In this document: positions 21,948 through 39,036 of the stretch, piece by piece
Position numbering within the stretch: position 1 is the stretch's first letter
Layout of the letters: every line of letters starts with the position of its first letter
Origin: a virus
Lineage: Duplodnaviria; Heunggongvirae; Uroviricota; Caudoviricetes
Virus record (IMG/VR): IMGVR_UViG_2851982317_000004
Direction: 5' to 3' (one strand)
DNA: 43,699 nucleotides
Notes under the pieces: model-generated
The model's database searches: none
What the model was told of the DNA's origin: nothing
What the model saw: only the letters and a program-made list of their open reading frames with translations
Program-made: the position numbers and the translations under genes

Positions 21948-23188
21948 TGTTCTTTTCGGGATTATTTCAACGAAAAAGTGACGCACCGGTGACCACGCCA
22001 GCAGAGCTGGCAGATGCTATCGGGCTGTCATACGACACCTATACCGGAAAGCAGATCAGCAGCCAGCGGGCCATGCGACTGACGGCGGTTTTTTCCTGCG
22101 TCAGGGTGCTGGCAGAGTCGGTCGGGATGTTGCCCTGCAATCTGTATCACCTGAACGGCAGCCTGAAACAGAGAGCCACCGGCGAACGTCTGCATAAGCT
22201 GATCTCCACGCATCCTAATGGCTATATGACGCCGCAGGAGTTCTGGGAGCTGGTGGTCACCTGTCTGTGTTTGCGGGGAAACTTTTACGCCTACAAAGTG
22301 AAAGCATTTGGCGAAGTGGCTGAACTGCTGCCCGTCGATCCCGGTTGTGTGGTACCGAAGCTTAACAGTAGCTGGGAGCCGGTCTATCAGGTCACATTCC
22401 CGGACGGCTCCACGGATGTGCTGAGCCAGGAGGATATCTGGCATGTGCGCACGCTGACGCTGGACGGACTGGTGGGGCTGAATCCCGTCGCCTATGCCCG
22501 CGAGGCAATATCGCTGGCGGCAGCGACCGAAGAGCACGGGGCCAGACTGTTCAGCAATGGTGCGGTGACGTCGGGTGTGTTGCGTACAGAGCAAACGCTG
22601 TCAGATCAGGCTTACGAGCGCCTGAAGAAAGATTTTGAGGAGCGTCACACCGGGCTTGGCAATGCTCACCGCCCGATGATCCTTGAGATGGGGCTGGACT
22701 GGAAGTCGATGGCGCTGAACGCCGAGGACAGCCAGTTCCTGGAAACCCGCAAGTTTCAGCTTGAAGAAATCTGTCGTCTGTTCCGGGTGCCGTTGCACAT
22801 GGTGCAGAACACCGATCGCGCCACCTTCAACAATATCGAAGAGCTGGGGCTGGGATTTATCAATTATTCACTGGTGCCGTATCTGACCCGCATCGAACAG
22901 CGGATCAACACCGGACTGGTACGAAAAAGTAAGCAGGGCGTTTATTACGCCAAATTTAACGCCGGGGCGTTACTGCGCGGAGATATGAAGTCCCGTTTTG
23001 AAGCCTACGCCACCGGGATCAACTGGGGAATTTACTCTCCCAATGACTGCCGTGACCTGGAAGATATGAATCCGCGTCCCGGTGGTGATGTCTATCTCAC
23101 ACCGATGAACATGACCACGAAACCCTCCGATGGCAGTAAAGCCGGTAAGCAGAAGGATAACGCCAATGCAGACGAAACAACGTCTTGA
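21947..23188 (+). CDS. Portal protein (HK97 family-like)
   Basis: 413 aa; GTG start with GGAGGT upstream; conserved-looking AVFSCVRVLAESVG near the N-terminus; sits between terL and the prohead protease. Confidence 0.88.
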   Translation: MFFSGLFQRKSDAPVTTPAELADAIGLSYDTYTGKQISSQRAMRLTAVFSCVRVLAESVGMLPCNLYHLNGSLKQRATGERLHKLISTHPNGYMTPQEFWELVVTCLCLRGNFYAYKVKAFGEVAELLPVDPGCVVPKLNSSWEPVYQVTFPDGSTDVLSQEDIWHVRTLTLDGLVGLNPVAYAREAISLAAATEEHGARLFSNGAVTSGVLRTEQTLSDQAYERLKKDFEERHTGLGNAHRPMILEMGLDWKSMALNAEDSQFLETRKFQLEEICRLFRVPLHMVQNTDRATFNNIEELGLGFINYSLVPYLTRIEQRINTGLVRKSKQGVYYAKFNAGALLRGDMKSRFEAYATGINWGIYSPNDCRDLEDMNPRPGGDVYLTPMNMTTKPSDGSKAGKQKDNANADETTS

Positions 23189-23816
23189 TGTACCGCTGAG
23201 TCTGAAGTCTGTCAGTGACTCCGGTGAGTTTGAAGGGTATGGCTCCGTCTTTGGTGTAAAGGACAGCCACGATGATGTGGTGATGTCCGGGGCATTTGCT
23301 GCTTCCCTGCGGGCGTGGAGTGACAGAAAAGCGTTACCTGCGCTGCTCTGGCAGCACCGCATGGATGAACCCATCGGTGTTTACACCGAAATGAAGGAAG
23401 ACGATGTCGGGCTTTACGTCAGGGGACGGTTGCTTATTGATGATGATCCCCTCGCAAAACGCGCACATGCACACATGAAGGCCGGTTCGTTAACCGGCCT
23501 TTCTATTGGGTACGTCCTGAAAGACTGGGAATACGACCGGAGCAAAGAAGCCTTTCTGCTGAAAGAAATCGACCTCTGGGAAGTCAGCCTGGTGACGTTC
23601 CCGTCTAACGACGAGGCGCGGATCAGCGACGTCAAGAACGCACTGGCCCGCGGGGAAATCCCCGAACAGAAAAAAATCGAAAGAGTCCTGCGTGATGTCG
23701 GACTCTCCCGTACCCAGGCCAAAGCATTCATGGCCGGGGGCTATGGCGCACTATCCCTGCGCGACGCTGAGGATGTGGGCTCTGCACTGAATGCACTGAA
23801 AAATCTGAACTTCTAA
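23130..23816 (+). CDS. Prohead protease (HK97 family-like)
   Basis: About 216-228 aa overlapping the portal 3' end (likely start ATG 23166); immediately upstream of the major capsid gene. Confidence 0.8.
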   Translation: MAVKPVSRRITPMQTKQRLDVPLSLKSVSDSGEFEGYGSVFGVKDSHDDVVMSGAFAASLRAWSDRKALPALLWQHRMDEPIGVYTEMKEDDVGLYVRGRLLIDDDPLAKRAHAHMKAGSLTGLSIGYVLKDWEYDRSKEAFLLKEIDLWEVSLVTFPSNDEARISDVKNALARGEIPEQKKIERVLRDVGLSRTQAKAFMAGGYGALSLRDAEDVGSALNALKNLNF

Positions 23817-23830
23817 TCAGGAGAAATACG

Positions 23831-25036
23831 ATGGCGGTTGATATTAAAGATGTCGAACAGGTCGCGCAGGAGCTGCAGCAGAAGTTTGACGACTTCAAAG
23901 CAAAGAACGACAAGCGCGTTGAGGCGATTGAGCAGGAAAAAGGCAAACTTGCCGGGCAGGTGGAAACCCTGAACGGAAAACTCAGCGAGCTGGAAAACCT
24001 CAAAAGCGACCTTGAAAAAGAGCTGCTTGAGCTGAAACGTCCGGCAGGTGGTGCGCAAAATAAACTGGCCACCGAGCACAAAGAGGCGTTTGTGGGCTTT
24101 CTGCGTAAAGGCCGTGAAGACGGTCTGCGCGATCTGGAGCGCAAGGCATTGCAGGTGGGCACCGATGAAGACGGCGGCTATGCCGTGCCGGAAGCACTGG
24201 ATCGCAACATTCTCACCCTGCTGAAAGATGAAGTGGTGATGCGCCAGGAAGCCACGGTGATCACCGTTGGTGGTTCCGACTACAAAAAACTGGTGAATCT
24301 GGGCGGCACGGCTTCCGGATGGGTTGGCGAGACTGACGCGCGCTCCCAGACTGCCACCTCAAAACTGGGACTAATTGAACCTTTCATGGGGGAAATCTAC
24401 GGTAACCCGCAGGCCACCCAGAAAATGCTGGATGATGCCTTTTTCAACGTGGAAGCCTGGATCAACAGCGAGCTGGCAACCGAATTTGCCGAACAGGAAG
24501 AAATTGCCTTTACCACCGGCGATGGCACCAAGAAGCCGAAAGGGTTCCTGGCGTATGAATCCACCAATGAAACCGATAAGGTCCGGGCGTTCGGCAAACT
24601 TCAGCATATTGTATCCGGCGACGCGACTGCGGTGACCGCAGACGCCATTATCAAACTGATTTACACGCTGCGAAAGGCACACCGCACTGGCGCGAAGTTC
24701 ATGATGAACAACAACAGCCTGTTTGCCATCCGTCTGCTGAAAGACACCGAGGGTAACTATCTGTGGCGTCCGGGGCTGGAGCTGGGGCAGCCATCCTCTC
24801 TGGCGGGTTACGGTATCGCTGAAAACGAACAGATGCCGGATATCGCCGCTGATGCGAAAGCCATTGCATTTGGTAACTTCAAACGGGGTTACACCATCGT
24901 TGACCGTATCGGCACCCGCATTCTGCGTGACCCGTACACCAATAAACCGTTTGTCGGTTTTTATACCACCAAGCGCACCGGCGGGATGCTGGTCGATTCG
25001 CAGGCCATCAAACTGCTGAAGATTGCAGCGGCGTAA
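23831..25036 (+). CDS. Major capsid protein, HK97-fold with N-terminal delta (scaffold) domain
   Basis: 401 aa; N-terminal ~100 aa coiled-coil-like then capsid body; follows the protease; hairpin terminator downstream. Confidence 0.9.
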   Translation: MAVDIKDVEQVAQELQQKFDDFKAKNDKRVEAIEQEKGKLAGQVETLNGKLSELENLKSDLEKELLELKRPAGGAQNKLATEHKEAFVGFLRKGREDGLRDLERKALQVGTDEDGGYAVPEALDRNILTLLKDEVVMRQEATVITVGGSDYKKLVNLGGTASGWVGETDARSQTATSKLGLIEPFMGEIYGNPQATQKMLDDAFFNVEAWINSELATEFAEQEEIAFTTGDGTKKPKGFLAYESTNETDKVRAFGKLQHIVSGDATAVTADAIIKLIYTLRKAHRTGAKFMMNNNSLFAIRLLKDTEGNYLWRPGLELGQPSSLAGYGIAENEQMPDIAADAKAIAFGNFKRGYTIVDRIGTRILRDPYTNKPFVGFYTTKRTGGMLVDSQAIKLLKIAAA

Positions 25037-25043
25037 TCATTCA

Positions 25044-25070
25044 GGGGCGCGGAACCGCGCCCCCTGTTCT
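25044..25070 (+). terminator. Hairpin downstream of the capsid gene (candidate partial terminator)
   Basis: GC-rich inverted repeat GGGGCGCGG / CCGCGCCCC followed by a T-rich stretch. Confidence 0.4.
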
Positions 25071-25085
25071 GACGGGTGAAGAATC

Positions 25086-25286
25086 ATGATCCTGAAACAA
25101 GATCTGAAATGGTCACCGGACGGTATGCGTGTTGAGGTCATTCGGGCCGGTGAGTATGACGACGGGGCGCTTCCTGCCCGGGTGCAGGAGATTGCACTTC
25201 AGGCCGGTTTAGCAGAGCGCGGAACCAGTGCAAAAAGCAGTAAAGCGGCAAAAGAGAAAAAAGCCACGGCCAGTAAAGAGGGCTGA
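25086..25286 (+). CDS. Small hypothetical protein with Lys/Ala-rich C-terminus
   Basis: 66 aa ORF between capsid and connector genes. Confidence 0.4.
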   Translation: MILKQDLKWSPDGMRVEVIRAGEYDDGALPARVQEIALQAGLAERGTSAKSSKAAKEKKATASKEG

Positions 25287-25288
25287 GT

Positions 25289-25612
25289 ATGCTTCTGACA
25301 ATGGAAGAGATTAAAGCCCAACTCCGGCTGGATGAGGATTTCGATGCTGATGACCGCCATCTGCAACTGCTGGCCTGTGCGGCACAAAAGCGGACGGAAA
25401 CGTATCTGAACCGGAAGCTCTATGCACCGGATGAAACCATTCCGGACAGCGATCCGGACGGGCTGCACCTGCCGGATGATATTCGTCTGGGGATGCTGAT
25501 GCTTATCAGCCATTTTTACGAAAACCGCTCGTCGGTTACGGAAGTGGAGAAACTCGACATGCCGCAGAGTTTTGGCTGGCTTGTCGGCCCGTACAGGTAC
25601 TTTCCGCAATGA
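25289..25612 (+). CDS. Head-tail connector protein (gp6-like)
   Basis: 107 aa ORF immediately after the capsid region; size and position typical. Confidence 0.65.
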   Translation: MLLTMEEIKAQLRLDEDFDADDRHLQLLACAAQKRTETYLNRKLYAPDETIPDSDPDGLHLPDDIRLGMLMLISHFYENRSSVTEVEKLDMPQSFGWLVGPYRYFPQ

Positions 25613-26019
25613 AAATTCGTCAGGCGCAGACCTGCGCAACCTACATTCTGCCGGACCCCGGCGAACTGAATAAACGCGTCCTGATCCGCCTGCGGGTGGA
25701 TATGCCCGCGGATAACTTTGGCGTGGAGCCTCAATACCCGGTTACGTTCCGGACATGGGCGAAGGTTATCCAGACCAGTGCCACCACCTGGCAGGAAACC
25801 GCGCAGACCGGGGACGCCATCACCCATTACATCACCATTCGTTACCGCCGGGGGATCACCGCTGATTATGAGGTGATCTGCGGTGACAGTGTGTACCGCG
25901 TGAAACGTCAGCGCGATCTGAACGGGGCACGGCGTTTTCTGCTGCTGGAGTGTACGGAGCTGGGCGAATGTAGGCAGAATCACGGAGGCAACAATGACGA
26001 CTTCCTTTTTGCACGTTGA
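25609..26019 (+). CDS. Head closure / head-tail adaptor protein
   Basis: 136 aa ORF overlapping its neighbours in the head-completion block. Confidence 0.55.
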   Translation: MKIRQAQTCATYILPDPGELNKRVLIRLRVDMPADNFGVEPQYPVTFRTWAKVIQTSATTWQETAQTGDAITHYITIRYRRGITADYEVICGDSVYRVKRQRDLNGARRFLLLECTELGECRQNHGGNNDDFLFAR

Positions 26020-26500
26020 TTTTCAGCAGCCCGCGGAGATGCGCTTTAACCGCGCCCGTGTCCGGCGGGCGTTTGTCTCGATTGGTCAGCGTCATATGCG
26101 TGATGCCCGTCGGCTGGTGATGCGCCGTGCGCGGTCGGCACCGGGTGAAAACCCCGGTTATCAGACCGGACGCCTGGCTCGTTCGATTGGTTACATGGTA
26201 CCCAGAGCCAGTAAAAAGCGAGCCGGTTTTATGACACGCATTGCCCCTAACCAGCGCAACGGGAAGGGGAACCGGATGATCTCTGGTGACTTCTATCCGG
26301 CGTTTCTGTTTTTTGGTGTCCGGGGAGGAGCAAAACGTCGTCGTAGTCATCATCGTGGTGCATCCGGTGGCAGCGGCTGGCGACTGGCTCCACGTAATAA
26401 CTTCATGGTGGAAACGCTTGAAAAGAACCGCAGCTGGACACGCTATTTTCTGGCGCGGGAATTGCGTAAATCACTGAAGCCGGAGCGACGACGCAGATGA
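25994..26500 (+). CDS. Virion morphogenesis / tail completion protein (HK97 gp10-like)
   Basis: 168 aa basic protein; the segment ENPGYQTGRLARSIGY is typical of this family as I recall it. Confidence 0.5.
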   Translation: MTTSFLHVDFQQPAEMRFNRARVRRAFVSIGQRHMRDARRLVMRRARSAPGENPGYQTGRLARSIGYMVPRASKKRAGFMTRIAPNQRNGKGNRMISGDFYPAFLFFGVRGGAKRRRSHHRGASGGSGWRLAPRNNFMVETLEKNRSWTRYFLARELRKSLKPERRRR

Positions 26501-27057
26501 AACTGACGCCTGTTATTGCTGCGCTGCGTGTCCGCTGCCCGTATTTTGAAAACCGGGTGGCAGGCGCGGCACAGTTCAAAAATCTGCCGGAGGTCGGAAA
26601 GCTGAGACTCCCGGCGGCGTATGTGGTACCGGGGGATGACTCTCCGGGAGAAAACAAAAGCCAGACCGACTACTGGCAGGAGCTGAAAGAGGGCTTCTCC
26701 GTGGTTGTCATACTGAGTAACGGGCGTGATGAGCGCGGTCAGTTTGCCTCGTATGATGTGGTGGACGATGTCCGGCAGATGCTCTTTAAGGCTCTGCTGG
26801 GCTGGAACCCGGAAGCGTGCGGTAACCCGATTACCTATGACGGCGGCACGCTGCTGGATCTGAATCGTCATGAGCTGATTTATCAGTTCGATTTTTCGGT
26901 CATCAGCGAGCTGACCGAAGACGATACCCGCCAGCAGGATGACCTGAACAGTCTGGATGAACTGCAAACGCTGGCGATTGATGTTGATTATCTCGAGCCC
27001 GGTAACGGGCCTGACGGCGATATCGAACATCACACCGAAATAACCCTTCCTTCCTGA
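26497..27057 (+). CDS. Structural protein, tail terminator/completion-like
   Basis: 186 aa acidic protein between head-completion genes and the sheath-like gene. Confidence 0.45.
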   Translation: MKLTPVIAALRVRCPYFENRVAGAAQFKNLPEVGKLRLPAAYVVPGDDSPGENKSQTDYWQELKEGFSVVVILSNGRDERGQFASYDVVDDVRQMLFKALLGWNPEACGNPITYDGGTLLDLNRHELIYQFDFSVISELTEDDTRQQDDLNSLDELQTLAIDVDYLEPGNGPDGDIEHHTEITLPS

Positions 27058-27065
27058 GGATCCTC

Positions 27066-27236
27066 ATGTTTGTCAAACCTGTTAAAGGGCGGTCAGTGCC
27101 TGACCCTGCCCGCGGCGACCTTTTGCCCGCCGAAGGGCGAAATGTTGACGAGAACAACTACTGGCTGCGCCGTGAAGCAGCGGGTGATATCCGGCGCGTG
27201 AATAAAAAGGTGAATACCGATGACGATAAGCTTTAA
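27066..27236 (+). CDS. Small protein (~56 aa) preceding the sheath-like gene (DUF2635-like)
   Basis: Hand-translated MFVKPVKGRSVPDPARGDLLPAEGRNVDENNYWLRREAAGDIRRVNKKVNTDDDKL; GAGGA upstream; overlaps the next gene start; resembles the small proteins that precede sheath genes in Mu-like tail clusters (from memory). Confidence 0.4.
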   Translation: MFVKPVKGRSVPDPARGDLLPAEGRNVDENNYWLRREAAGDIRRVNKKVNTDDDKL

Positions 27237-28716
27237 CACCATTCCGTCGAATACGCTGGTTCCGTTGTTTTATGCGGAAATGGATAACCAGGCGGCGAAT
27301 ACTGCACAGGACAGCGGAGCATCGCTGCTGATTGGTCATGCCAATAACGGTGCAGAGATTATTGCCAACAGTCTGGTACTGATGCCGTCGGCAGACTATG
27401 CACGCCAGATTTGTGGTGCGGGAAGTCAGCTGGCGCGTATGGTCGAGGCTTATCGCCAGACTGACCCGTTTGGCGAGCTGTATGTGATTGCCGTTCCGGA
27501 AGCCACAGGCGCGGCGGCAACGGTTACGCTGACGGTGACCGGGGCGGCAACCGAAACCGGCACGGTGAATGTTTATGTGGGACGTACCCGCGTGCAGGCA
27601 CCGGTGACCAATGGCGATAACGTCGCGACGATTGCCGGCAGTATCCAGGATGCCATCAATGCTGTTCCGGCCCTGCCGTTTACGGCCTCATCTTCGGCTG
27701 GTGTGGTCACACTGACCGCGCGTCATAAGGGGCTTTGCGGGAATGAAATTCCTGTCAGCCTCAATTACTACGGCTTCGGTGGGGGAGAAGTGCTGCCTGC
27801 GGGCGTACAGATTGCCGTGGCGGCGGGAACCGCCGGAACGGGGGCTCCTGTTCTCACCGGCGCGGTGGCTGCAATGGCGGATGAGCCGTTTGATTATATC
27901 GGTCTGCCGTTCAACGACACGGCCTCCGTTAACACGCTGGTGACCGAGATGAACGATACCAGCGGTCGCTGGAGCTATGCGCGTCAGCTGTATGGTCATG
28001 TGTATACGGCAAAGATCGGCACGCTGTCAGAACTGGTGACCGCAGGTGACCAGTTTAACCAGCAGCACATTACCCTGGCGGGGTACGAAAAAGAGACCCA
28101 GACGCCTGCCGACGAGCTGGCGGCAAGCCGTACCGCCCGCGCAGCGGTGTTTATTCGCAACGATCCGGCACGTCCCACGCAGACCGGTGAGCTGGTGGGT
28201 ATGCTGCCTGCGCCGAAGGGGAAACGGTTCACGATGACCGAACAACAGACCCTGCTGTCTCATGGCGTGGCAACGGCGTATGTCGAAAGCGGGGTACTGC
28301 GCATTCAGCGTGATGTCACCACGTACAGGAAAAACGCTTACGGGGTTGCGGATAACAGTTACCTCGACAGTGAGACGCTGCATACCAGCGCGTATGTACT
28401 GCGCAAACTGAAATCCGTCATTACCAGTAAGTACGGGCGTCACAAGCTTGCCAGCGACGGTACCCGCTTTGGTCCCGGTCAGGCGATTGTCACCCCGGCG
28501 GTAATCAAAGGGGAACTGCTGGCAACCTATCGTCAGCTCGAGCGTGCGGGGATCGTGGAAAACTACGAACTGTTTAAGCAGTACCTGGTTGTGGAGCGTG
28601 ATGCCAGCGATCCGAACCGCCTGAACACGCTGTTCCCGCCTGACTATGTTAACCAGTTGCGTGTCTTTGCCGTGGTTAACCAGTTCCGTCTTCAGTATTC
28701 AGAGGAGTCTGCATAA
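27220..28716 (+). CDS. Tail sheath-like protein (Mu gpL-like); large siphovirus major tail protein not excluded
   Basis: 498 aa; size, position (before a ~118 aa tube-like protein, chaperone and tape measure) and C-terminal region (...YRKNAYGV..., ...RVFAVVNQFRLQY) fit a contractile sheath. Confidence 0.55.
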   Translation: MTISFNTIPSNTLVPLFYAEMDNQAANTAQDSGASLLIGHANNGAEIIANSLVLMPSADYARQICGAGSQLARMVEAYRQTDPFGELYVIAVPEATGAAATVTLTVTGAATETGTVNVYVGRTRVQAPVTNGDNVATIAGSIQDAINAVPALPFTASSSAGVVTLTARHKGLCGNEIPVSLNYYGFGGGEVLPAGVQIAVAAGTAGTGAPVLTGAVAAMADEPFDYIGLPFNDTASVNTLVTEMNDTSGRWSYARQLYGHVYTAKIGTLSELVTAGDQFNQQHITLAGYEKETQTPADELAASRTARAAVFIRNDPARPTQTGELVGMLPAPKGKRFTMTEQQTLLSHGVATAYVESGVLRIQRDVTTYRKNAYGVADNSYLDSETLHTSAYVLRKLKSVITSKYGRHKLASDGTRFGPGQAIVTPAVIKGELLATYRQLERAGIVENYELFKQYLVVERDASDPNRLNTLFPPDYVNQLRVFAVVNQFRLQYSEESA

Positions 28717-29072
28717 TGGCCCGTATCGGGGGAACCTGTTATTTCAAAATTGACGGTCAGCAGCTATCGCTGACCGGCGGCATTGAGGTGCCCATGAACA
28801 GGACGGTCAATGATGACATCATCGGCCTGGACGGTTCAGTGGACCGCAAGGAAACTCACCGTGCGCCTTATGTCAAAGGGACCTTCAAGGTGCCGAAGAA
28901 TTTTCCGGTGGGCAAAATCACCTCGTCTGATGAGATGACCATCACTGCCGAGCTGGCGAACGGTCAGGTCTATGTACTGTCGTCTGCCTGGCTGCACGGC
29001 GAAGCGAACCATAATGCCGAAGAAGGCACGGTTGATCTTGAGTTCCACGGTGAAGAAGGGGATTACCAGTAA
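28716..29072 (+). CDS. Tail tube-like protein (or G-type chaperone)
   Basis: 118 aa, beta-rich composition; start overlaps the sheath stop; stop overlaps the next ATG. Confidence 0.5.
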   Translation: MARIGGTCYFKIDGQQLSLTGGIEVPMNRTVNDDIIGLDGSVDRKETHRAPYVKGTFKVPKNFPVGKITSSDEMTITAELANGQVYVLSSAWLHGEANHNAEEGTVDLEFHGEEGDYQ

Positions 29073-29413
29073 TGAAAGAGCTTGAGTTAAAGAAACCGAT
29101 TACTGCTCATGGCGAGACACTCTCCGTACTGGAGTTTGATGAGCCCACCGGGAAGGATGTCCGCGAGCTGGGGTATCCCTACCAGATGAATCAGGATGAG
29201 TCCGTCAGACTTCTGGCGCATGTGGTGTCGAAATACATTGTGCGGCTGGCGAAAGTGCCGCAAAGCTCTGTCGACCAGATGTCTCCGGCAGATTTCAGCC
29301 TTTTACCGGAAGAGAACGGGATACCGGAGCGAACGGACGAAGAACTGATGCATCTTGGGGAAGGTATTTCCGGAGGTGTGCGTTATGGACCAGATAGCCA
29401 ACCTGGTCATTGA
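29072..29413 (+). CDS. Tail assembly chaperone
   Basis: 113 aa acidic protein immediately upstream of, and overlapping, the tape measure gene; in the -1 frame relative to the preceding ORF. Confidence 0.5.
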   Translation: MKELELKKPITAHGETLSVLEFDEPTGKDVRELGYPYQMNQDESVRLLAHVVSKYIVRLAKVPQSSVDQMSPADFSLLPEENGIPERTDEELMHLGEGISGGVRYGPDSQPGH

Positions 29414-32400
29414 TTTGGGGATTGATGCGGCAGAGTTTAAAAATGAAATTCCCCGTATCAAAAACCTTCTGAATGGTGCAGCCAGCGATGCAGAACGGTC
29501 TTCTGCCCGTATGCAGCGTTTTATGGAGCGTCAGACTCAGGCCGCCCGGCAGACAACGCAGGCGGCTTCTTCGGCTGCAACAGCCGCATCCGTCCATGCG
29601 CAGACGGTGGAGAAGAACGCACAGGCTCATGAACGCATGGCCCGCGAGGTGGAGAAAACCCGCCAGCGCATGGAGGCGCTGAGCCAGAAAATGCGCGAGG
29701 AACAGGCGCAGGCCATGGCTCTGGCGGAGGCTCAGGATAAAGCGGCTGCTGCGTTTTATCGTCAGATTGACAGTGTGAAACAGGCCAGTGCGGGGCTGCA
29801 GGAATTACAGCGTATTCAGCAGCAGATCCGACAGGCCAGAAACAGTGGCGGGATTGGTCAGCAGGATTATCTGGCGCTGATTTCTGAGGTTACGGCGAAA
29901 ACCCGTGTTCTTACGCAGGCTGAGGAAGAGGCTACCCGACAGAAAGTGGCGTTTATCCGTCAGCTTAAAGAGCAGGCAACCCGCCAGAATCTTTCTTCTT
30001 CTGAGTTGCTTCGTGCTAAGGCTGCCCAGCTGGGGGTAAGCAGTGCTGCAGAAGTGTATATCCGCAAAATGGAGCAGGCAGGAAAAGCCACGCATTCGCT
30101 GGGTCTGAAAAGTGCAGCGGCCCGCCAGGAGATAGGCGTTCTGATAGGTGAACTGGCCCGCGGCAATTTAGGTGCGCTGAGGGGATCCGGGATAACGCTG
30201 GCTAACCGTGCCGGATGGATAGACACACTGATGTCACCGAAAGGCATGATGCTTGGCGGGGTTATTGGCGGTATTGCCGCGTCCGTCTATGGTCTGGGTA
30301 AAGCCTGGTATGACGGTCAGAAGGAGGGGGAAGAATTTAACCGCCAGCTGTCGCTGACGGGGCATTATGCCGGAGTCACTGCCGGGCAGCTGTGGACGCT
30401 CAGTCGTGCTATTTCCGGGAATGGTATCACGCAACATGCTGCAGCCGGTGCGCTGGCTCAGGTGGTGGGGAGTGGTGCATTTCGTGGAAACGATATCGGT
30501 ATGGTAGCGAGAGCTGCCGCACAGATGGAGCGATCGGTTGGCCAGTCGGTCAGCGATACCATAAATCAGTTTAAGCGGCTGAAGGATGATCCTGTAAATG
30601 CCGCGAAGGCTCTGGACAATGAGCTGCATTTTCTTACTGCCACTCAGCTTGAGCAGATACGTGTCCTTGGGGATCAGGGACGGTCCAGTGATGCTGCACG
30701 GATAGCCATGTCTGCACTGGCAGAGGAAACCGGTCGGCGTACTGCGGATATTGATAATAACCTCAATGCGCTTGGCAGTACGCTGAAGTATCTGTCTGAT
30801 TTGTGGAGTCGTTTCTGGGATGCGGCCATGAATATTGGTCGTGAAGACTCGCTGGATGAACAGATTGCCGCTTTACAGGAGAAAGTGTCGCGGGCGAAAA
30901 GACTCCCCTGGACGGCATCATCTTCTCAGGTTGAATACGATCAGCAGCGTCTTAACGATCTTCAGGAGAAAAAACGCCAGAAGGATTTGCAGGATGCAAA
31001 AGAGCAGGCAGAGCGGAATTATCAGGAGCAACAGAAACGACGTAATGCTGAAAATGCTGCACTGAACCGGATGAATGAAACGGAAGCAGCACGACATCAG
31101 CGTGAAATTGCGCGTATTAATTCCATGCAGTACGCCGATCAGGCTGTCAGGGATGCAGCGATACAACGTGAAAATGAACGTTACGAGAAAGCCCTGGCAT
31201 CCGGTAAGAAAAAAACACGCGAAACCCGTAATGATGAGGCCACCAGGTTATTGCTGCAGTACAGTCAGCAACAGGCACAGGTGGAAGGACAGATTGCTGC
31301 TGCAAGACAGTCAGCAGGCATTGCCACTGAAAAGATGACAGAAGCGCATAAACAGCTTCTGGCTCTGCAGCAGCGCATCAGCGATCTGGACGGGAAAAAA
31401 CTGACGGCAGATGAAAAGAGTGTGCTGGCCCGTAAAGATGAACTGATTCAGGCACTGATGCTGCTGGATGTAAAACAGCAGGAGCTTCAGAAACAGACGG
31501 CACTCAACGATCTGAAGAAAAAAACAATTCAGCTGACCAGTCAACTGGCTGAAGAAGAGCGCGCTCAGCGTCAGCAACATGACCTGGATATCGCCACGGT
31601 GGGTATGGGTGATCAGCAGCGGCAGCGATATCAGGTACAACTGAGTCTTCGCCAGAAATACCAGCAACAGCTGGAGCAGTTGAGGCGGGATAGTGAGCAG
31701 AAAGGGACATATAACACGGATGACTACAGAAAGGCCGAGCAGGCGCTGACGGAGAGCCTGAACCGACAACTGAATGAGAATCGCCGTTACTGGCAACAGC
31801 TTGAAATTGCTCAGGGTGACTGGAAAAACGGAGTCCTGCGTGCACTCCAGAATGTCACTGAGAATGCGGATAACACAGCCGGGACAGTGGAACAGTTGTT
31901 CACGTCTGCGTTCAGTAGCATGAGTGACTGGCTGGCGACATTCTGTACTACAGGCAAACTCAATTTCAAATCCTTCACCTCTTCTGTGCTGTCAGATATG
32001 TCCAGAATCATGGCTCAGATAGCTTTAATGAAAGCGGTAAAAGGCATTGCTTCCGCGCTGCCTTTTGATTTTGTAGCCAATGCTGATGGCGGTGTTTATC
32101 AGTCGGCTGATTTGAGTCGCTACAGTGGCACGGTGGTTAACCGTCCGACGTTTTTTGCTTTTGCAAAAGGCGCGGGTGTGATGGGGGAAGCTGGACCTGA
32201 AGCCATTCTGCCACTGCGTCGTGGTGCTGACGGTAAGCTGGGGGTTGTGGCGGATATTGGTGGTTCAGGTATGGCGATGTTTGCCCCGCAGTACAACATC
32301 GAGATCAATAACGATGGCACGAACGGGCAGATAGGTCCGGCTGCCCTGAAGGTGGTTTATGACCTTGGGAAAAAAGCGGCAGCGGACTTTATGCAACAGC

Positions 32401-32441
32401 AGGCCCGTGATGGTGGTCGGTTAAGTGGAGCATATCGGTAA
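29355..32441 (+). CDS. H: Tail tape measure protein (lambda H-like); likely true start ATG at 29385
   Basis: 1028 aa, coiled-coil, Ala/Gln/Glu-rich; N-terminal LVIDLGIDAAEF and C-terminal NNDGTNGQIGPAALKVVYD resemble lambda H as I recall it; the track start is TTG, and ATG 29385 has GGAGGT upstream. Confidence 0.85.
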   Translation: MGKVFPEVCVMDQIANLVIDLGIDAAEFKNEIPRIKNLLNGAASDAERSSARMQRFMERQTQAARQTTQAASSAATAASVHAQTVEKNAQAHERMAREVEKTRQRMEALSQKMREEQAQAMALAEAQDKAAAAFYRQIDSVKQASAGLQELQRIQQQIRQARNSGGIGQQDYLALISEVTAKTRVLTQAEEEATRQKVAFIRQLKEQATRQNLSSSELLRAKAAQLGVSSAAEVYIRKMEQAGKATHSLGLKSAAARQEIGVLIGELARGNLGALRGSGITLANRAGWIDTLMSPKGMMLGGVIGGIAASVYGLGKAWYDGQKEGEEFNRQLSLTGHYAGVTAGQLWTLSRAISGNGITQHAAAGALAQVVGSGAFRGNDIGMVARAAAQMERSVGQSVSDTINQFKRLKDDPVNAAKALDNELHFLTATQLEQIRVLGDQGRSSDAARIAMSALAEETGRRTADIDNNLNALGSTLKYLSDLWSRFWDAAMNIGREDSLDEQIAALQEKVSRAKRLPWTASSSQVEYDQQRLNDLQEKKRQKDLQDAKEQAERNYQEQQKRRNAENAALNRMNETEAARHQREIARINSMQYADQAVRDAAIQRENERYEKALASGKKKTRETRNDEATRLLLQYSQQQAQVEGQIAAARQSAGIATEKMTEAHKQLLALQQRISDLDGKKLTADEKSVLARKDELIQALMLLDVKQQELQKQTALNDLKKKTIQLTSQLAEEERAQRQQHDLDIATVGMGDQQRQRYQVQLSLRQKYQQQLEQLRRDSEQKGTYNTDDYRKAEQALTESLNRQLNENRRYWQQLEIAQGDWKNGVLRALQNVTENADNTAGTVEQLFTSAFSSMSDWLATFCTTGKLNFKSFTSSVLSDMSRIMAQIALMKAVKGIASALPFDFVANADGGVYQSADLSRYSGTVVNRPTFFAFAKGAGVMGEAGPEAILPLRRGADGKLGVVADIGGSGMAMFAPQYNIEINNDGTNGQIGPAALKVVYDLGKKAAADFMQQQARDGGRLSGAYR

Positions 32442-32770
32442 TGGAGACGTTTCACTGGAAAGTGCGCCCGGATATGAATGTGGTATCAGAGCCGAAAGTG
32501 GTGACAGTGAAGCTGGGCGATGGTTATGAACAGCGTCGTGCGGCGGGACTGAATAACCAGTTGTCGACTTACAGCGTGACGATACGTGTTCGTAAATGTG
32601 AACACCCATCTTTGAAAGCCTTTCTGGAACGGCACGGTGGCGTCCGCGCATTTCAGTGGATGCCACCTTATGACTGGAAGCCGATCACGGTGGTTTGTCG
32701 TAAATGGTCGGCAAGCGTGGGGGCGCTGTGGGTAACCATAACGGCAGATTTTGAACAGGTCGTGGCATAG
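32441..32770 (+). CDS. M: Minor tail protein M
   Basis: 109 aa, same length as lambda M with matching motifs (WKV.P, GDGY.QR, EFEQVV) as I recall them. Confidence 0.88.
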   Translation: METFHWKVRPDMNVVSEPKVVTVKLGDGYEQRRAAGLNNQLSTYSVTIRVRKCEHPSLKAFLERHGGVRAFQWMPPYDWKPITVVCRKWSASVGALWVTITADFEQVVA

Positions 32771-32779
32771 GAGGCCCTG

Positions 32780-33478
32780 ATGCAGGATATTCCACAGGAA
32801 ACACATCATGAGACGACACGCCTTACTCAGTCAGCCCAGGTGGTGCTCTGGGAAATCGATCTGACAGAGGTCGGTGGTGAACGTTATTTTTTCTGTAATG
32901 AGCAGAACGAAAAAGGTGAGCCGGTCACCTGGCAGGGGCGGCAGTATCAGGCATACCCCATTCAGGGGACGGGATTTGAACTGAACGGTAAGGGCAGTGC
33001 TGCCCGTCCGACACTGACGGTCTCTAACCTGCACGGCATGGTCACCGGGATGGCGGAAGACCTGCAGAGTCTGGTCGGCGGAACGGTGGTCAGGCGTAAG
33101 GTTTACGCCCGTTTTCTGGATGCGGTGAACTTCGTCAACGGAAACAGCGACGCCGATCCGGAGCAGGAGGTGATCAGCCGCTGGCGTATTGAGCAGTGCA
33201 GCGAACTGAGCGCGGTCAGTGCCTCCTTTGTACTGTCCACGCCGACGGAAACGGACGGCGCTGTTTTTCCGGGGCGCATCATGCTTGCTAATACCTGCAC
33301 CTGGACCTATCGCGGTGATGAGTGCGGTTATCACGGTCCGGCTGTCGCGGATGAATATGACCAGCCAACGTCCGATATCACGAAGGATAAATGCAGCAAA
33401 TGCCTGAGCGGTTGTAAGTTCCGCAATAACGTCGGCAACTTTGGCGGCTTCCTTTCCATTAACAAACTTTCGCAGTAA
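32780..33478 (+). CDS. L: Minor tail protein L
   Basis: 232 aa, near-colinear with lambda L as I recall it (VVLWEIDLTEVGGERYFFCNEQNEKGEPVTWQGRQYQ, C-terminal Cys cluster). Confidence 0.9.
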   Translation: MQDIPQETHHETTRLTQSAQVVLWEIDLTEVGGERYFFCNEQNEKGEPVTWQGRQYQAYPIQGTGFELNGKGSAARPTLTVSNLHGMVTGMAEDLQSLVGGTVVRRKVYARFLDAVNFVNGNSDADPEQEVISRWRIEQCSELSAVSASFVLSTPTETDGAVFPGRIMLANTCTWTYRGDECGYHGPAVADEYDQPTSDITKDKCSKCLSGCKFRNNVGNFGGFLSINKLSQ

Positions 33479-33483
33479 ATCCC

Positions 33484-34227
33484 ATGACACAGACAGAATC
33501 AGCGATTCTGGCGCACGCCCGGCGATGTGCGCCAGCGGAGTCGTGCGGCTTCGTGGTGAGAACACCGGAGGGGGAAAGATATTTTCCCTGCGTGAATATT
33601 TCCGGTGAGCCGGAGGAGTATTTCCGGATGGCTCCGGAGGACTGGCTGCAGGCAGAGATGCAGGGTGAGATTGTGGCGCTGGTCCACAGCCACCCCGGTG
33701 GTCTGCCCTGGCTGAGTGAGGCCGACCGGCGGCTGCAGGTGCAGAGTGATTTGTCGTGGTGGCTGGTCTGCCGCGGGGCGATTCATAAGTTCCGCTGTGT
33801 GCCGCATCTCACCGGGCGGCGCTTTGAGCACGGGGTGACGGACTGTTACACGCTGTTCCGGGACGCTTACCATCTGGCGGGAATTGAGATGCCAGATTTT
33901 CATCGTGAGGACGACTGGTGGCGTAATGGTCAGAATCTCTATCTGGATAATCTGGAGGCTACAGGGCTGTATCAGGTGCCGTTGTCAACGGCGCAGCCGG
34001 GCGATGTGCTGCTGTGCTGTTTTGGTTCATCGGTGCCGAATCATGCCGCCATTTACTGTGGTGACGGCGAGCTGCTGCACCATATTCCTGAACAACTGAG
34101 TAAACGAGAGAGGTACACCGACAAATGGCAGCGACGCACACACTCCCTCTGGCGTCACCGGGCATGGCACGCATCTGCCTTTACGGGGATTTGCAGCGAT
34201 TTGGCCGCCGCATCGACCTTCGTGTGA
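33484..34227 (+). CDS. K: Tail assembly protein K (JAB/MPN plus NlpC/P60-like)
   Basis: 247 aa with HSHP metal-binding-like motif (VALVHSHPGG) and a Cys/His peptidase-like C-terminal half; lambda K position. Confidence 0.88.
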   Translation: MTQTESAILAHARRCAPAESCGFVVRTPEGERYFPCVNISGEPEEYFRMAPEDWLQAEMQGEIVALVHSHPGGLPWLSEADRRLQVQSDLSWWLVCRGAIHKFRCVPHLTGRRFEHGVTDCYTLFRDAYHLAGIEMPDFHREDDWWRNGQNLYLDNLEATGLYQVPLSTAQPGDVLLCCFGSSVPNHAAIYCGDGELLHHIPEQLSKRERYTDKWQRRTHSLWRHRAWHASAFTGICSDLAAASTFV

Positions 34228-34772
34228 AAACGGGGGCCGAAGCCATCCGGGCACTGGCCACACAGCTCCCGGCATTTCGTCAGAAACTGAGCGACGGCTG
34301 GTATCAGGTGCGCATTGCCGGGCGTGATGCAGGCGAAAATGAATTATCTGCCCGTCTTAATGAACCGCTGGCAAATGGTGCCGTGATCCACATCGTTCCG
34401 CGTCTGGCGGGTGCCAAAAGTGGCGGTGTGTTTCAGGCGGTGCTGGGTGCGGCGCTGATTGCGGTGGCATGGTGGAACCCTGTGGGCTGGCTGGGGACCG
34501 CGGCTGTATCGGGTATGTATGCAGCAGGAGCCAGTATGATCCTGGGTGGTGTGGCGCAGATGCTGGCACCGAAAGCCAGGACGCCCACGGCAGCCAGTAC
34601 AGATAACGGCAAACAGAACACGTATTTCTCGTCACTGGATAACATGGTTGCCCAGGGTAATGTTCTGCCTGTTCTGTACGGGGAAATGCGCGTGGGGTCA
34701 CGTGTGGTTTCTCAGGAGATCAGCACGGCAGACGAAGGGGATGGTGGTCAGGTTGTGGTGATTGGTCGCTGA
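34125..34772 (+). CDS. I: Tail assembly protein I
   Basis: About 200 aa with a hydrophobic central segment; overlaps the K 3' end (likely start near 34164); lambda I position. Confidence 0.8.
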   Translation: MAATHTLPLASPGMARICLYGDLQRFGRRIDLRVKTGAEAIRALATQLPAFRQKLSDGWYQVRIAGRDAGENELSARLNEPLANGAVIHIVPRLAGAKSGGVFQAVLGAALIAVAWWNPVGWLGTAAVSGMYAAGASMILGGVAQMLAPKARTPTAASTDNGKQNTYFSSLDNMVAQGNVLPVLYGEMRVGSRVVSQEISTADEGDGGQVVVIGR

Positions 34773-34832
34773 TGCAAAATGTTTTATGTGAAACCGCCTG
34801 CGGGCGGTTTTGTCGTTTATGGAGCGTGAGGA

Positions 34833-37800
34833 ATGGGTAAAGGCAGCAGTAAGGGGCATACCCCGCGCGAAGCGAAGGACAACCTGAAGTCCACGCAGCT
34901 GCTGAGTGTGATCGATGCCATCAGTGAAGGGCCGGTTGAAGGTCCGGTGGATGGATTAAAAAGCGTGCTGCTGAACAGTACGCCGGTGCTGGACAATGAG
35001 GGGAATACCAACATCTCCGGCGTCACGGTGGTGTTCCGGGCAGGTGAGCAGGAGCAGTCACCGCCGGAGGGGTTTGAATCCTCCGGCTCCGAGACGGTGC
35101 TGGGTACGGAAGTGAAATATGACACGCCGATCACCCGGACCATCACGTCGGCAAACATCGACCGTCTGCGCTTTACCTTCGGTGTACAGGCACTGGTGGA
35201 AACCACCTCAAAGGGAGACAGGAATCCGTCGGAAGTCCGCCTGCTGGTTCAGATACAGCGTAACGGTGGCTGGGTGACAGAAAAAGACATCACCATTAAG
35301 GGCAAAACCACGTCGCAGTATCTGGCCTCAGTGGTGGTGGATAACCTGCCGCCGCGCCCGTTTAATATCCGGATGCGCAGGATGACGCCGGACAGCACCA
35401 CAGACCAGCTGCAGAACAAAACGCTCTGGTCGTCATACACCGAAATTATCGATGTGAAACAGTGCTACCCGAACACGGCACTGGTCGGCGTGCAGGTGGA
35501 CTCGGAGCAGTTCGGCAGCCAGCAGGTGAGCCGTAATTATCATCTGCGCGGGCGTATTCTGCAGGTGCCGTCGAATTATAACCCGCAGACGCGGCAATAC
35601 AGCGGTATCTGGGACGGAACGTTTAAACCGGCATACAGCAACAACATGGCCTGGTGTCTGTGGGATATGCTGACCCACCCGCGCTACGGCATGGGGAAAC
35701 GTCTTGGTGCGGCAGATGTGGATAAATGGGCGCTGTATGTTATCGGCCACTACTGCGACCAGTCGGTGCCGGACGGCTTTGGCAGCACGGAGCCGCGCAT
35801 CACCTGTAATGCCTGGCTGACCACACAGCGCAAGGCGTGGGATGTGCTCAGCGATTTCTGCTCGGCGATGCGCTGTATGCCGGTATGGAACGGGCAGACG
35901 CTGACGTTCGTGCAGGACCGGCCATCGGATAAGGTGTGGACCTATAACCGCAGTAATGTGGTGATGCCGGATGATGGCGCGCCGTTCCGCTACAGCTTCA
36001 GCGCCCTGAAGGACCGCCATAATGCCGTTGAGGTGAACTGGATTGACCCGAATAACGGCTGGGAGACGGCGACAGAGCTTGTGGAGGACACGCAGGCCAT
36101 TGCCCGTTACGGTCGTAACGTCACGAAGATGGATGCCTTTGGCTGTACCAGCCGGGGGCAGGCACACCGCGCCGGGCTGTGGCTGATTAAAACGGAACTG
36201 CTGGAAACGCAGACCGTGGATTTCAGCGTGGGTGCTGAAGGGCTTCGCCATGTACCGGGCGATGTCATTGAAATCTGTGATGATGACTATGCCGGTATCA
36301 GCATCGGCGGGCGCGTGCTGGCGGTGAACAGCCAGACCCGGACGCTGACGCTCGACCGTGAAATCACGCTGCCATCCTCCGGTACCACGCTGATAAGCCT
36401 GGTTGACGGAAGTGGCAATCCGGTCAGCGTGGAGGTCCAGTCCGTCACCGACGGCGTGAAGGTAAAAGTGAGCCGTGTTCCTGACGGCGTTGCCGGATAC
36501 AGCGTGTGGGGGCTGAAGCTGCCGACGCTGCGCCAGCGCCTGTTCCGCTGCGTGAGTATCCGTGAGAACGACGACGGCACGTATGCCATCACCGCCGTGC
36601 AGCATGTACCGGAAAAAGAAGCCATCGTGGATAACGGGGCGCACTTTGACGGCGACCAGAGCGGCACGGTGAATGGTGTCACGCCGCCAGCAGTGCAGCA
36701 CCTGACTGCCGAAGTCACCGCAGACAGCGGGGAGTATCAGGTACTGGCCCGCTGGGATACGCCGAAGGTGGTGAAGGGCGTGAGCTTCCTGCTCCGTCTG
36801 ACCGTAACAGCGGATGACGGCAGTGAGCGGCTGGTCAGCACGGCCCGGACGACGGAAACCACATACCGCTTCACGCAACTGGCGCTGGGGCGGTACACGC
36901 TGACAGTCCGGGCGGTAAATGCGTGGGGACAGCAGGGCGATCCGGCATCGGTATCGTTCCGGATTGCCGCACCGGTAGCACCGTCGCGGATTGAGCTGAC
37001 GCCGGGGTATTTTCAGATAACCGCCACGCCGCATCTTGCGGTTTATGATCCGACGGTACAGTTTGAGTTCTGGTTCTCGGAAAAGCGGATTACCGATATC
37101 AGGCAGGTTGAAACCAGCGCGCGTTATCTTGGTACGGGGCTGTACTGGATAGCTGCCAGTATCAATATCAAACCGGGCCATGATTATTACTTTTATATCC
37201 GCAGTGTGAACACCGTTGGCAAATCGGCATTCGTGGAGGCTGTTGGTCAGCCGAGTGATGACGCATCCGGCTATCTGGATTTTTTCAAAGGCGAGATAGG
37301 GAAAACCCATCTGGCTCAGGAGCTGTGGACGCAGATTGATAACGGTCAGCTTGCGCCTGACCTGGCTGAAATCAGGACATCCATTACGGATGTCAGCAAT
37401 GAAATCACACAGACCGTCAATAAGAAACTGGAAGACCAGAGTGCAGCGATCCAGCAGATACAGAAGGTTCAGGTTGATACAAATAATAATCTGAACAGCA
37501 TGTGGGCTGTGAAGCTGCAGCAGATGCAGGACGGACGCCTTTATATTGCGGGTATCGGTGCCGGTATTGAGAACACCCCCGACGGCATGCAGAGTCAGGT
37601 GCTGCTGGCGGCAGACAGGATTGCGATGATTAATCCTGCAAATGGCAACACAAAACCGATGTTTGTTGGTCAGGGTGATCAGATATTCATGAACGACGTG
37701 TTCCTGAAACGCCTGACGGCCCCCACCATTACCAGCGGCGGTAATCCTCCGGCATTTTCCCTGACACCGGACGGGCGGCTGACGGCGAAAAATGCCGATA

Positions 37801-38093
37801 TCAGCGGTAACGTGAATGCGAACTCCGGGACGCTCAACAACGTCACGATTAACGAGAACTGTCGGGTTCTGGGAAAATTGTCCGCCAACCAGATTGAAGG
37901 CGATCTCGTTAAAACAGTGGGCAAAGCTTTCCCCGGGACTCCCGTGCACCGGAACGGTGGCCATCAGGGACCATCACCGTCAGGGTTTATGACGATCAGC
38001 CGTTTGACCGGCAGATTGTTATTCCGGCGGTGGCATTCAGCGGCGCTAAACATGAGCGGGAGAATAACGATATTTATTCGTCATGCCGCCTGA
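34833..38093 (+). CDS. J: Host specificity / tip attachment protein J, frame lost near the 3' end
   Basis: 1086 aa ORF with lambda J-like N-terminus; the last ~55 codons read as nonsense, and the conserved J C-terminus continues in a different frame (ORF 38030..38311). Confidence 0.85.
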
Positions 38094-38311
38094 TAGTACG
38101 GAAAAACGGTGCTGAAATTTATAACCGTACCGCGCTGGATAATACGCTGATTTACAGTGGTGTTATTGATATGCCAGCTGGTCGCGGCCACATGACGCTG
38201 GAGTTTTCGGTGTCAGCATGGCTGGTAAATAACTGGTATCCCACAGCAAGTATCAGCGATTTGCTGGTTGTGGTGATGAAGAAAGCCACCGCAGGCATCA
38301 GTATCAGCTGA
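38030..38311 (+). CDS. J: C-terminal segment of J in a shifted frame (pseudogene fragment or sequencing error)
   Basis: The frame reads ...[92 protein letters not shown], matching the lambda J C-terminal receptor-binding end as I recall it. Confidence 0.7.
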
Positions 38312-38329
38312 ATTTTATAACCCATATAC

Positions 38330-38354
38330 GGGCGCCAGAAATGGCGCCTTTTTT
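38330..38354 (+). terminator. Intrinsic terminator after J
   Basis: Stem GGGCGCC / GGCGCC with 6-nt loop followed by T6. Confidence 0.55.
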
Positions 38355-38378
38355 ATTGCAGAAAAGCGAGAGGTAATT

Positions 38379-38978
38379 ATGCGTAAAGTTTGTTCAGCCA
38401 TTTTGTCCGCAGCCATCTGTCTGGCCGTATCCGGTGCACCTGCATGGGCGTCTGAGCAGCAGGCCACACTGAGCGCAGGGTATCTTCATGCCCGTACGAA
38501 CGCTCCCGGCAGCGATAATCTGAACGGGATTAACGTGAAATACCGTTATGAGTTTACGGACACGCTGGGGCTGATTACGTCATTCAGTTATGCCAACGCT
38601 GAAGATGAGCAAAAAACGCATTACAGCGATACCCGCTGGCATGAAGATTCCGTGCGTAACCGCTGGTTCAGCGTGATGGCGGGGCCGTCTGTGCGCGTGA
38701 ATGAATGGTTCAGCGCGTATGCGATGGCGGGTATGGCTTACAGCCGTGTTTCGACTTTCTCCGGAGATTATATCCGCGTAACTGACAACAAGGGGAAAAC
38801 GCACGATGTGCTGACCGGAAGTGATGACGGTCGCCACAGCAACACGTCTCTGGCGTGGGGAGCTGGCGTGCAGTTTAACCCGACCGAATCCGTGGTTATT
38901 GATGTCGCTTATGAAGGCTCCGGCAGTGGTGACTGGCGCACTGACGGTTTCATCGTGGGTGTCGGTTATAAATTCTGA
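38379..38978 (+). CDS. lom: Lom-like outer membrane protein (Ail/Lom/PagC family)
   Basis: 199 aa with N-terminal signal peptide (…[10 protein letters not shown]), beta-barrel-like alternating pattern and C-terminal YKF; lambda lom position between J and stf. Confidence 0.85.
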
Positions 38979-39004
38979 TTAGCCAGGTAACACAGTGTTA
39001 TGAC

Positions 39005-39033
39005 AGCCCGCCGGTTCAGGCGGGCTTTTTTGT
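39005..39033 (+). terminator. Intrinsic terminator after lom
   Basis: Stem AGCCCGCC / GGCGGGCT with 6-nt loop followed by T6. Confidence 0.6.
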
Positions 39034-39036
39034 GGG

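Follow-up and report, generated by a model that had tools for sequence, protein, structure and literature searches.

Can a contractile sheath and tube be combined with a siphophage-type tip in one functional phage tail? The question is raised by a tail module in the IMG/VR virus record IMGVR_UViG_2851982317_000004 (Caudoviricetes), a stretch of 43,699 nucleotides that was analyzed at its full length and is referred to here as the window. A first-pass annotation, made from the sequence letters alone, had described the region between positions 27066 and 34772 as a mosaic, in which genes for a sheath-like protein of 498 amino acids (aa) and a tube-like protein of 118 aa are followed directly by the tape measure and tip genes of a lambda-type tail. 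It left two possibilities, namely a contractile tail with a siphovirus-type tip or, if the sheath-like protein were a large major tail protein, a conventional siphovirus tail. Our results support the unusual gene content but argue against an unusual tail. The locus is very probably a recent, clone-restricted, and probably tail-defective chimeric prophage of Escherichia coli, which arose from a single illegitimate recombination event between an SfV-like myophage and a lambda-like prophage.

Sheath, tube, and tip genes of the mosaic module

The 498-aa protein is a true tail sheath of the Mu/SfV type. It contains three sheath domains of the Pfam database (PF04984, E 1e-33; PF17482, E 1e-21; PF17481, E 7e-11), matches phrog_165 (“tail sheath”) from end to end (E 2e-231), and aligns over residues 3–490 with the solved sheath of phage Mu (PDB 9khy_a, 495 aa; E 9e-81). 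Likewise, the 118-aa protein is a true Mu-type tube. A phmmer search against PDB returned no match for this short protein; an AlphaFold (AF2) model (32 homologs in the alignment; predicted local distance difference test score [pLDDT] 85) had its best fold matches among the Mu tube chains 9khy_A, 9ki1_4, and 9lj8_S, with template modeling (TM) scores of 0.77–0.81. The tubes of other contractile systems came next, whereas the match to gpV of lambda was far weaker (TM 0.46–0.59). The genes of both sheath and tube are 97–98% identical in nucleotide sequence to those of phages SfI, SfII, and SfV. In a paper that showed the tail of SfI to be contractile by electron microscopy, SfV and SfII are assigned to the Myoviridae (PMC3636060).

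The remaining elements of the module were also present as annotated. The small open reading frame (ORF) that precedes the sheath gene, described as DUF2635-like, belongs to this family (Table 1), and its counterpart orf10 of SfV is annotated as “similar to Mu GP38”. The genes said to resemble H, M, L, K, I, and J of lambda match the respective Pfam and PHROG families; this set of tape measure and tip genes is complete and is followed by Lom, Stf, and Tfa. The head genes upstream are of the HK97 type (Phage_portal, Peptidase_S78, Phage_capsid).

A junction between two parent types

The two parts of the module meet inside a gene that had been missed by the first-pass annotation, a 113-aa ORF located between the tube and the tape measure. 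Its product is a chimeric tail-assembly chaperone that consists of residues 1–74 of the 89-aa orf13 product of SfV, followed, in the same reading frame, by the ~42 C-terminal residues of a T protein of the lambda type. Phage_TAC_7 was detected at aa 4–78 and a weak match to Phage_tail_T at aa 67–103, which covers only positions 40–73 of the 73 profile positions. A megablast comparison with 50,697 phage records assigned positions 27066–29292 of the window to SfI, SfV, and SfII (97–98% identity) and positions 29287–32441 to PhiR55_1, HannyBb, and cdtI (98–99% identity) and to mEp460 (96%); the two halves adjoin at query positions 2222–2227, and none of the records contained both.

At the crossover, the window reads ...CCGGCAGA on the left and TTTCAGCC... 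on the right (in another rendering of the left side, ...ATGTCTCCGGCAGA followed by TTTCAGCC...). Only the dinucleotide GA at positions 29291–29292 is exactly common to both parents (GGCAGA versus GGCTGA), which identifies the event as illegitimate recombination. A homeologous crossover via remote homology of the chaperones, considered on account of a tblastn alignment that seemed to reach into the SfV part, was rejected because a direct BLASTP comparison of SfV orf13 with the lambda-type T protein shows no similarity (E 23).

The junction also disrupts the programmed –1 frameshift that provides Mu/SfV-type tail modules with a chaperone pair. Both the slippery heptamer of SfV (T_TTT_TTC) and the –1 frame extension are located on the 3′ side of the breakpoint and were hence lost. 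A scan of the fused ORF detected no heptamer of the form XXXYYYZ; therefore, no such frameshift site remains for the production of a second chaperone form. Lambda tail assembly needs both chaperone forms.

Close relatives of both parents are extant. The window is almost identical to the chromosome of E. coli E2528-C1 (NZ_CP035870.1), where the hybrid prophage (~44.6 kb) is inserted between potC on its integrase side and potB on its tail-fiber side. In strain 100117, a complete SfV-like prophage located at yecE/yecD aligns as one block with the SfV-like part (block A in Table 1), precisely up to position 29292. Beyond this point, the prophage of strain 100117 encodes an 89-aa chaperone, a 610-aa tape measure, a DNA-circularization (Mu N) protein, baseplate P and V proteins, gp46, gp47, gp48, and fibers. 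The lambda-like part (block B) matches a prophage that occupies the same potB/potC site in strain 203740. This conventional lambdoid prophage has a terminase, portal, and head of the lambda type and Z, U, V, G, and T upstream of H, and its M, L, I, J, Lom, Stf, and Tfa have the same RefSeq accessions as those of the hybrid. Strains 203740 and E2528-C1 are 99.988% identical in the chromosomal flank, which includes the same IS1 insertion beside icd, whereas the left arms of the two prophages are only 97% identical or non-homologous. Such an abrupt switch between two extant and nearly identical parent types, with an overlap of merely 2 bp, is characteristic of a recent chimeric prophage.

The same is true for the narrow clonal distribution of the junction. 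Among 5,426 complete E. coli genomes, 2,469 contain either half, but only one contains the junction. The 34-mer across the junction, CAGATGTCTCCGGCAGATTTCAGCCTTTTACCGG, was not found in the representative genomes of GTDB, in IMG/VR, or in the metagenome contigs of JGI. The fused chaperone (WP_064763519.1) is encoded on only four contigs, which include the complete genome of E2528-C1 and the draft genome of E. coli O25:NM str. E2539C1; both of these named strains are enterotoxigenic E. coli (ETEC) of type O25:NM. Positions 19177–29556 of the window, which span the junction, are identical in the draft of E2539C1. Because the junction recurs in a complete genome and in a separately assembled draft, it is real.

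The conservation within the SfV-like part is not uniform. In the sheath gene, positions 27500–28000 are 96.4% identical to the prophage of strain 100117, as opposed to 99.4–100% in the adjacent 500-bp bins; the lower value marks a short mosaic segment within or close to the beta-sandwich domain. The region of late regulators, tRNA genes, and lysis genes is shared more widely: positions 14282–19509 are 98.8% identical to a second SfV-like prophage in the E2528-C1 chromosome, located at yecE/yecD, positions 14000–19500 are 98.6–100% identical to the SfV-like prophage of strain 100117, and positions 16835–18818 are 98.4% identical to the lambdoid prophage of strain 203740. A common late and lysis segment could support homologous exchange between prophages of the myophage and siphophage types. 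In the SfV-like prophages of three strains, the baseplate gene of the gp48/YmfQ family is in each case flagged as incomplete by RefSeq (C-terminus missing) and is followed by a gap of ~400 bp, which may be due to a recurrent annotation error or be a genuine property of these prophages.

Tail function and origin of the hybrid prophage

The hybrid lacks essential parts of both tail systems. In agreement with the first-pass annotation, no baseplate genes lie between the tube and the tip, and neither the tape measure of SfV nor N, P, or gp45–gp48 was detected anywhere in the window by tblastn with the SfV proteins, by Pfam, or in the RefSeq annotation. The genes Z, U, V, and G of lambda were equally absent from the window when searched by tblastn (with the PhiR55_1 proteins for Z, U, and V), with Pfam, and in the RefSeq annotation. 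From a Mu/SfV-type module, the hybrid has retained the sheath and the tube and has lost the cognate tape measure, the tube initiator (gp43/N), the hub (gp44/P), the spike (gp45), and the wedge proteins including the sheath initiator (gp46, gp47, gp48; the equivalents of T4 gp25/gp6/gp7). From a lambda module, it has retained H, M, L, K, I, and J and has lost V, U, and Z together with the G and G-T chaperones, as G is missing and T is represented only by its last ~42 residues. All of N, P, gp45–gp48, and the tape measure are carried by normal SfV-like prophages, and all of Z, U, V, and G by the normal lambdoid relative.

The structures of related tails illustrate the consequences. The tube of phage Mu starts on a gp43 hexamer, its first sheath ring is anchored on the wedge protein gp46 by beta-sheet augmentation, and the hub, spike, and wedges (gp44–gp48) finish the baseplate (PMC11915804). 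Even the minimal baseplate of XM1 still has a gp25-like sheath initiator and a (gp6)2-gp7-like wedge (PMC10457771). In lambda, the gpM ring docks onto the gpV tube via specific electrostatic contacts (PMC10721106). Judged by its gene complement, the hybrid prophage is probably tail-defective.

The typical partners of this sheath point in the same direction. We surveyed the sheath family in 80 loci of IMG/VR, which are the closest in that database (sheath 99–100% identical), and in 12 loci of GTDB representative genomes with sheath identities down to 79% (Edwardsiella, Citrobacter, Kluyvera, Kosakonia, Enterobacter, other Enterobacteriaceae, and Shigella). In IMG/VR, the sheath is accompanied by a tape measure and baseplate genes of the SfV/Mu type in 70–77 of the 80 loci, the rest being shorter, and by H, M, L, K, I, and J in none. 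Among the GTDB loci, all with enough downstream sequence carry Mu-type tail genes, and none of the 12 has lambda tip genes. The gene-level oddity of the module is therefore real, but the evidence does not support its interpretation as a tail architecture, because there is a single illegitimate breakpoint in a chaperone gene, the junction is found in one ETEC clone, essential parts of both tail systems are missing, and the sheath is accompanied by a Mu-type baseplate in the other loci examined.

The most probable origin of the hybrid is a single illegitimate event that joined the left and middle parts of an SfV-like myophage (early genes, lysis genes, HK97-type head, terminator, sheath, tube, and the first 74 chaperone codons) to the right arm of a lambda-like prophage resident at potB/potC (the last ~42 codons of T, then H, M, L, K, I, J, Lom, Stf, and Tfa). 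Only the GA dinucleotide was used in this crossover, and the reading frame was kept by chance. The simplest route may have been a deletion between two tandem prophages at potB/potC; an equivalent result would follow from one illegitimate crossover of the resident prophage with an SfV-like genome entering the cell. The high identity of the chromosomal flank (99.988%) and the right arm (99.90%) to strain 203740, compared with a left arm that is 97% identical or non-homologous, fits a foreign left and middle part joined to a resident right arm. Upon induction, the hybrid is expected to produce heads and perhaps precursors of a lambda-type tip but presumably no functional tails of its own, and it would persist by vertical inheritance in one clone.

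Other routes and donors were considered. A chromosomal inversion between two prophages was rejected, since a synthetic query for the reciprocal junction was covered in none of the 5,426 complete genomes. No e14-like element that could have been a source of Mu-type tail genes is present at icd, and the SfV-like prophage at yecE/yecD of E2528-C1 does not qualify as the donor because its nucleotide identity over terminator, sheath, and tube is only 74%. The swapped segments are nearly equal in length, with 10,468 bp on the SfV-type side (18819–29286) and 10,443 bp on the lambda-type side (9552–19994 of the stretch from strain 203740), a difference of 25 bp. This prompted the idea of a cassette replacement in a resident like that of strain 203740, via a homologous crossover in the lysis region and an illegitimate one in the chaperone gene. 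Such a route is conceivable but less simple, considering the left arm (97% identical or non-homologous) in comparison with the flank and the right arm.

The possibility that the tail is conventional after all, with the 498-aa protein as a large major tail protein and the 118-aa protein as a G-type chaperone of a siphovirus, is refuted by the full-length assignments to sheath and tube in Pfam, PHROGs, PDB sequence searches, and fold search, and by the close identity to SfI, SfV, and SfII, which are described as contractile-tailed; we found no point in its favor, and its likelihood is negligible. It is hardly more credible that an assembler mis-joined two prophages. The junction is unique among the complete genomes, and the strain harbors other prophages of both types, as might be expected of an artifact. 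However, the join has only 2 bp in common where assembler mis-joins have long repeats, it recurs in the independent draft of a second isolate and in a fused protein encoded on four contigs, the borders at potC and potB are correct, the chromosomal context is intact, and there is no reciprocal junction.

Several observations do not sit easily with a defective chimera. The RefSeq record shows no disrupted ORF in the prophage, and the two chaperone parts are joined in frame; intact ORFs, however, are to be expected after a recent event, and an in-frame join has a chance of one in three. The head-proximal end (SfV-type connectors, terminator, sheath, and tube) is coherent, and the distal end comprises the complete set of H, M, L, K, I, J, and Stf, so that there are few heterologous interfaces. 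The loss of tail function is a prediction from sequence; gpM, gpV, and the Mu-type tube share the tail-tube fold, and at this level, growth of the tube on a gpM ring is conceivable. Moreover, the tandem-lysogen intermediate was not observed. The same intact frames, the internal completeness of both submodules, and the fold common to gpM and the Mu-type tube would favor a functional hybrid, in which the SfV-type tube and sheath polymerize on the lambda-type tip without a wedge baseplate and the fused chaperone would connect the SfV-type tube with the lambda tape measure. We consider this very improbable. The hybrid has no sheath initiator or wedge of the gp46/47/48 type, no tube initiator, and no hub, which are kept in all solved contractile tails cited above; its chaperone has neither the frameshift nor a full T domain. 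Only one clone carries the junction, which is missing from the viral, metagenomic, and other genomic collections searched, and no other surveyed locus joins this sheath to a lambda tip. Both flanks are 99.6–99.9% identical to ordinary parent types, and therefore show no sign of co-adaptation beyond that divergence. Somewhat less improbable, though speculative, is that the prophage is tail-defective on its own yet is mobilized by the tails of the yecE/yecD prophage, or that it forms a non-contractile, tube-only tail on the lambda tip. E2528-C1 was not among the best 60 matches to the Mu-type baseplate region, and its yecE/yecD prophage (NZ_CP035870.1, ~425–466 kb) was located by a synteny-guided look-up; it is a complete, diverged SfV-like prophage with the full set of Mu-type tail and baseplate genes, and the 5.2-kb late and lysis region shared with the hybrid (98.8% identity) makes co-expression possible. 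It could in principle provide tails in trans or recombine further with the hybrid. However, the head-tail joining proteins of the two prophages are only 58–68% identical (terminator, 68%) and the sheath and tube 81–83% (83% and 81%, respectively), and no spread is seen beyond one clone. A chimeric, probably tail-defective prophage thus remains the preferred explanation, and of the proposal that a contractile tail was combined with a siphovirus-type tip, the gene content stands, whereas the architecture is not supported.

Genomic setting and comparison with known systems

Positions 8690–43699 of the window align with NZ_CP035870.1 with one difference, a homopolymer base at position 37935, and positions 1–8837 are 100% identical to the adjoining part of that chromosome. 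E2528-C1 is an O25:NM ETEC strain that produces only heat-labile toxin (LT) and was obtained from a cruise-ship outbreak and later used in volunteer challenge studies (PMC6663128). The single difference splits the J gene of the window into two ORFs (34833–38093 and 38030–38311), with CCCC at 37931–37935 instead of CCCCC in NZ_CP035870.1, whereas J is intact in the RefSeq record (1159 aa); the frameshift is either a homopolymer sequencing error or the result of early gene decay. An antisense ORF of 843 aa on the minus strand (35433–37964), which lies wholly inside J in a stretch of 58–62% GC, is almost certainly spurious.

Table 1. Features of the tail module, the breakpoint, and the two blocks of different origin (positions in the window)
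Feature	Position	Strand	Evidence
Tail terminator (SfV orf9 type)	26497..27057	+	PF23840 Phage_tail_terminator, E 1.6e-25
DUF2635 small protein, 56 aa (Mu gp38 / SfV orf10 type)	27066..27236	+	PF10948, E 1e-16; phrog_208
Tail sheath, 498 aa (Mu gp39/L, SfV orf11 type)	27220..28716	+	Pfam, PHROGs, PDB; RefSeq WP_032200231.1
Tail tube, 118 aa (Mu gp40 type)	28716..29072	+	PF10618 Tail_tube, E 9.5e-33; phrog_185
Chimeric tail-assembly chaperone, 113 aa	29072..29413	+	Pfam, DNA alignment, tblastn, RefSeq WP_064763519.1
Recombination breakpoint	29291..29292	.	Three-way alignment of SfV, window, and PhiR55_1; megablast halves
Tape measure, 1018 aa (lambda-H type)	29385..32441	+	PF06791 (TMP_2), PF24622, PF09718 (Tape_meas_lam_C), phrog_24; start codon per RefSeq
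Distal tail protein (gpM type)	32441..32770	+	PF05939, E 7e-39
Hub protein (gpL type)	32780..33478	+	PF05100, E 2e-99
JAB/NlpC-P60 peptidase (gpK type)	33484..34227	+	PF14464, PF00877
Tail assembly protein (gpI type)	34224..34772	+	PF06805, E 3e-24; start codon per RefSeq
Central fiber (gpJ type)	34833..38312	+	gpJ Pfam domains; split in window by 1-base difference at 37935
Block A, SfV-like myophage origin: late regulators, tRNAs, lysis, HNH/P27-type terminase, HK97-type head, tail terminator, DUF2635, sheath, tube, chaperone 5′ part	13520..29292	+	Continuous 99.59% alignment to strain 100117 prophage; 92–98% to SfI, SfII, SfIV, and SfV
Block B, lambdoid siphophage origin: T 3′ end, H, M, L, K, I, J, Lom, Stf, Tfa, methyltransferase, tfa remnant, to attR at potB	29287..43699	+	99.90% over 14.4 kb to strain 203740 prophage; 95–99% to PhiR55_1, HannyBb, cdtI, and mEp460

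Two further observations concern other parts of the hybrid prophage. ARAGORN predicts three tRNA genes at 16193–16442, with the anticodon CAT (called Met; Ile in RefSeq), Arg-TCG, and Arg-TCT, whereas the RefSeq annotation comprises only two and omits the one at 16276–16352. Beside attR, a direct repeat of 144 bp with 89.6% identity (42488–42631 and 43537–43680), formed by the 3′ end of tfa and a tfa remnant, flanks a gene for an S-adenosylmethionine (SAM)-dependent methyltransferase on the opposite strand (42708–43376). It looks like the scar of an older tail-fiber module exchange or cargo insertion.

The analysis cautions against the tempting but probably mistaken view that the module encodes a contractile tail with a siphovirus-type tip. 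At single-base resolution, it describes a newly formed illegitimate recombinant of a myophage and a siphophage in a bacterial chromosome, whose parent types can still be identified at 99.6–99.9% identity. Because E2528-C1 is a human-challenge ETEC strain, the probable tail defect of its prophage is useful for the annotation of its genome. If the hybrid proved functional, it would provide the first example of a contractile tail with a siphovirus-type tip, observed shortly after it arose, and would bear on the interconversion of contractile and non-contractile tails.

Each part of the hybrid has a clear counterpart among known phages. From the terminase to codon 74 of the chaperone, the hybrid shares gene order and 92–98% nucleotide identity with SfI, SfII, SfIV, SfV, and E. 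coli prophages. SfV differs by its frameshifted chaperone extension, a tape measure of ~610 aa, homologs of Mu N, P, and gp45–gp48, and its fibers, all of which are absent in the hybrid. From the last 42 codons of T to attR, the hybrid is 95–99.9% identical to siphophages of the cdtI/mEp460/PhiR55_1 type and the prophage of strain 203740, which also shares its integration site. By contrast, these siphophages and the prophage of strain 203740 have their own lambda-type terminase, portal, head, Z, U, V, G, and full-length T, where the hybrid has a head, sheath, and tube of the SfV type. Phage Mu resembles the hybrid in the full-length homology of the sheath (E 9e-81) and in the fold of the tube (TM ~0.8; PDB 9khy, 9ki1, 9lj8), but its tail needs the gp43 initiator, the gp44 hub, the gp45 spike, and the gp46/47/48 wedges, which have no counterparts in the hybrid.

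Surviving mosaic junctions of phages are usually located at gene or module boundaries, and interacting genes are kept together. The junction of the hybrid, by contrast, cuts through a gene and separates interacting tail genes. Models of phage mosaicism predict many unselected junctions that break modules but are rarely seen because they do not spread; the split of the tail module within a gene is as expected for such an unselected product. In other respects, it resembles the mosaic junctions that illegitimate or relaxed recombination produces in lambdoid phages, as known from the literature on modular phage genomes, with an abrupt switch between unrelated sequences, almost no common bases, and long flanks nearly identical to other phages (PMC2327257, PMC3945230, PMC9836094). 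The hybrid is best explained not as a new tail architecture but as a further example of a mosaic or defective lambdoid prophage.

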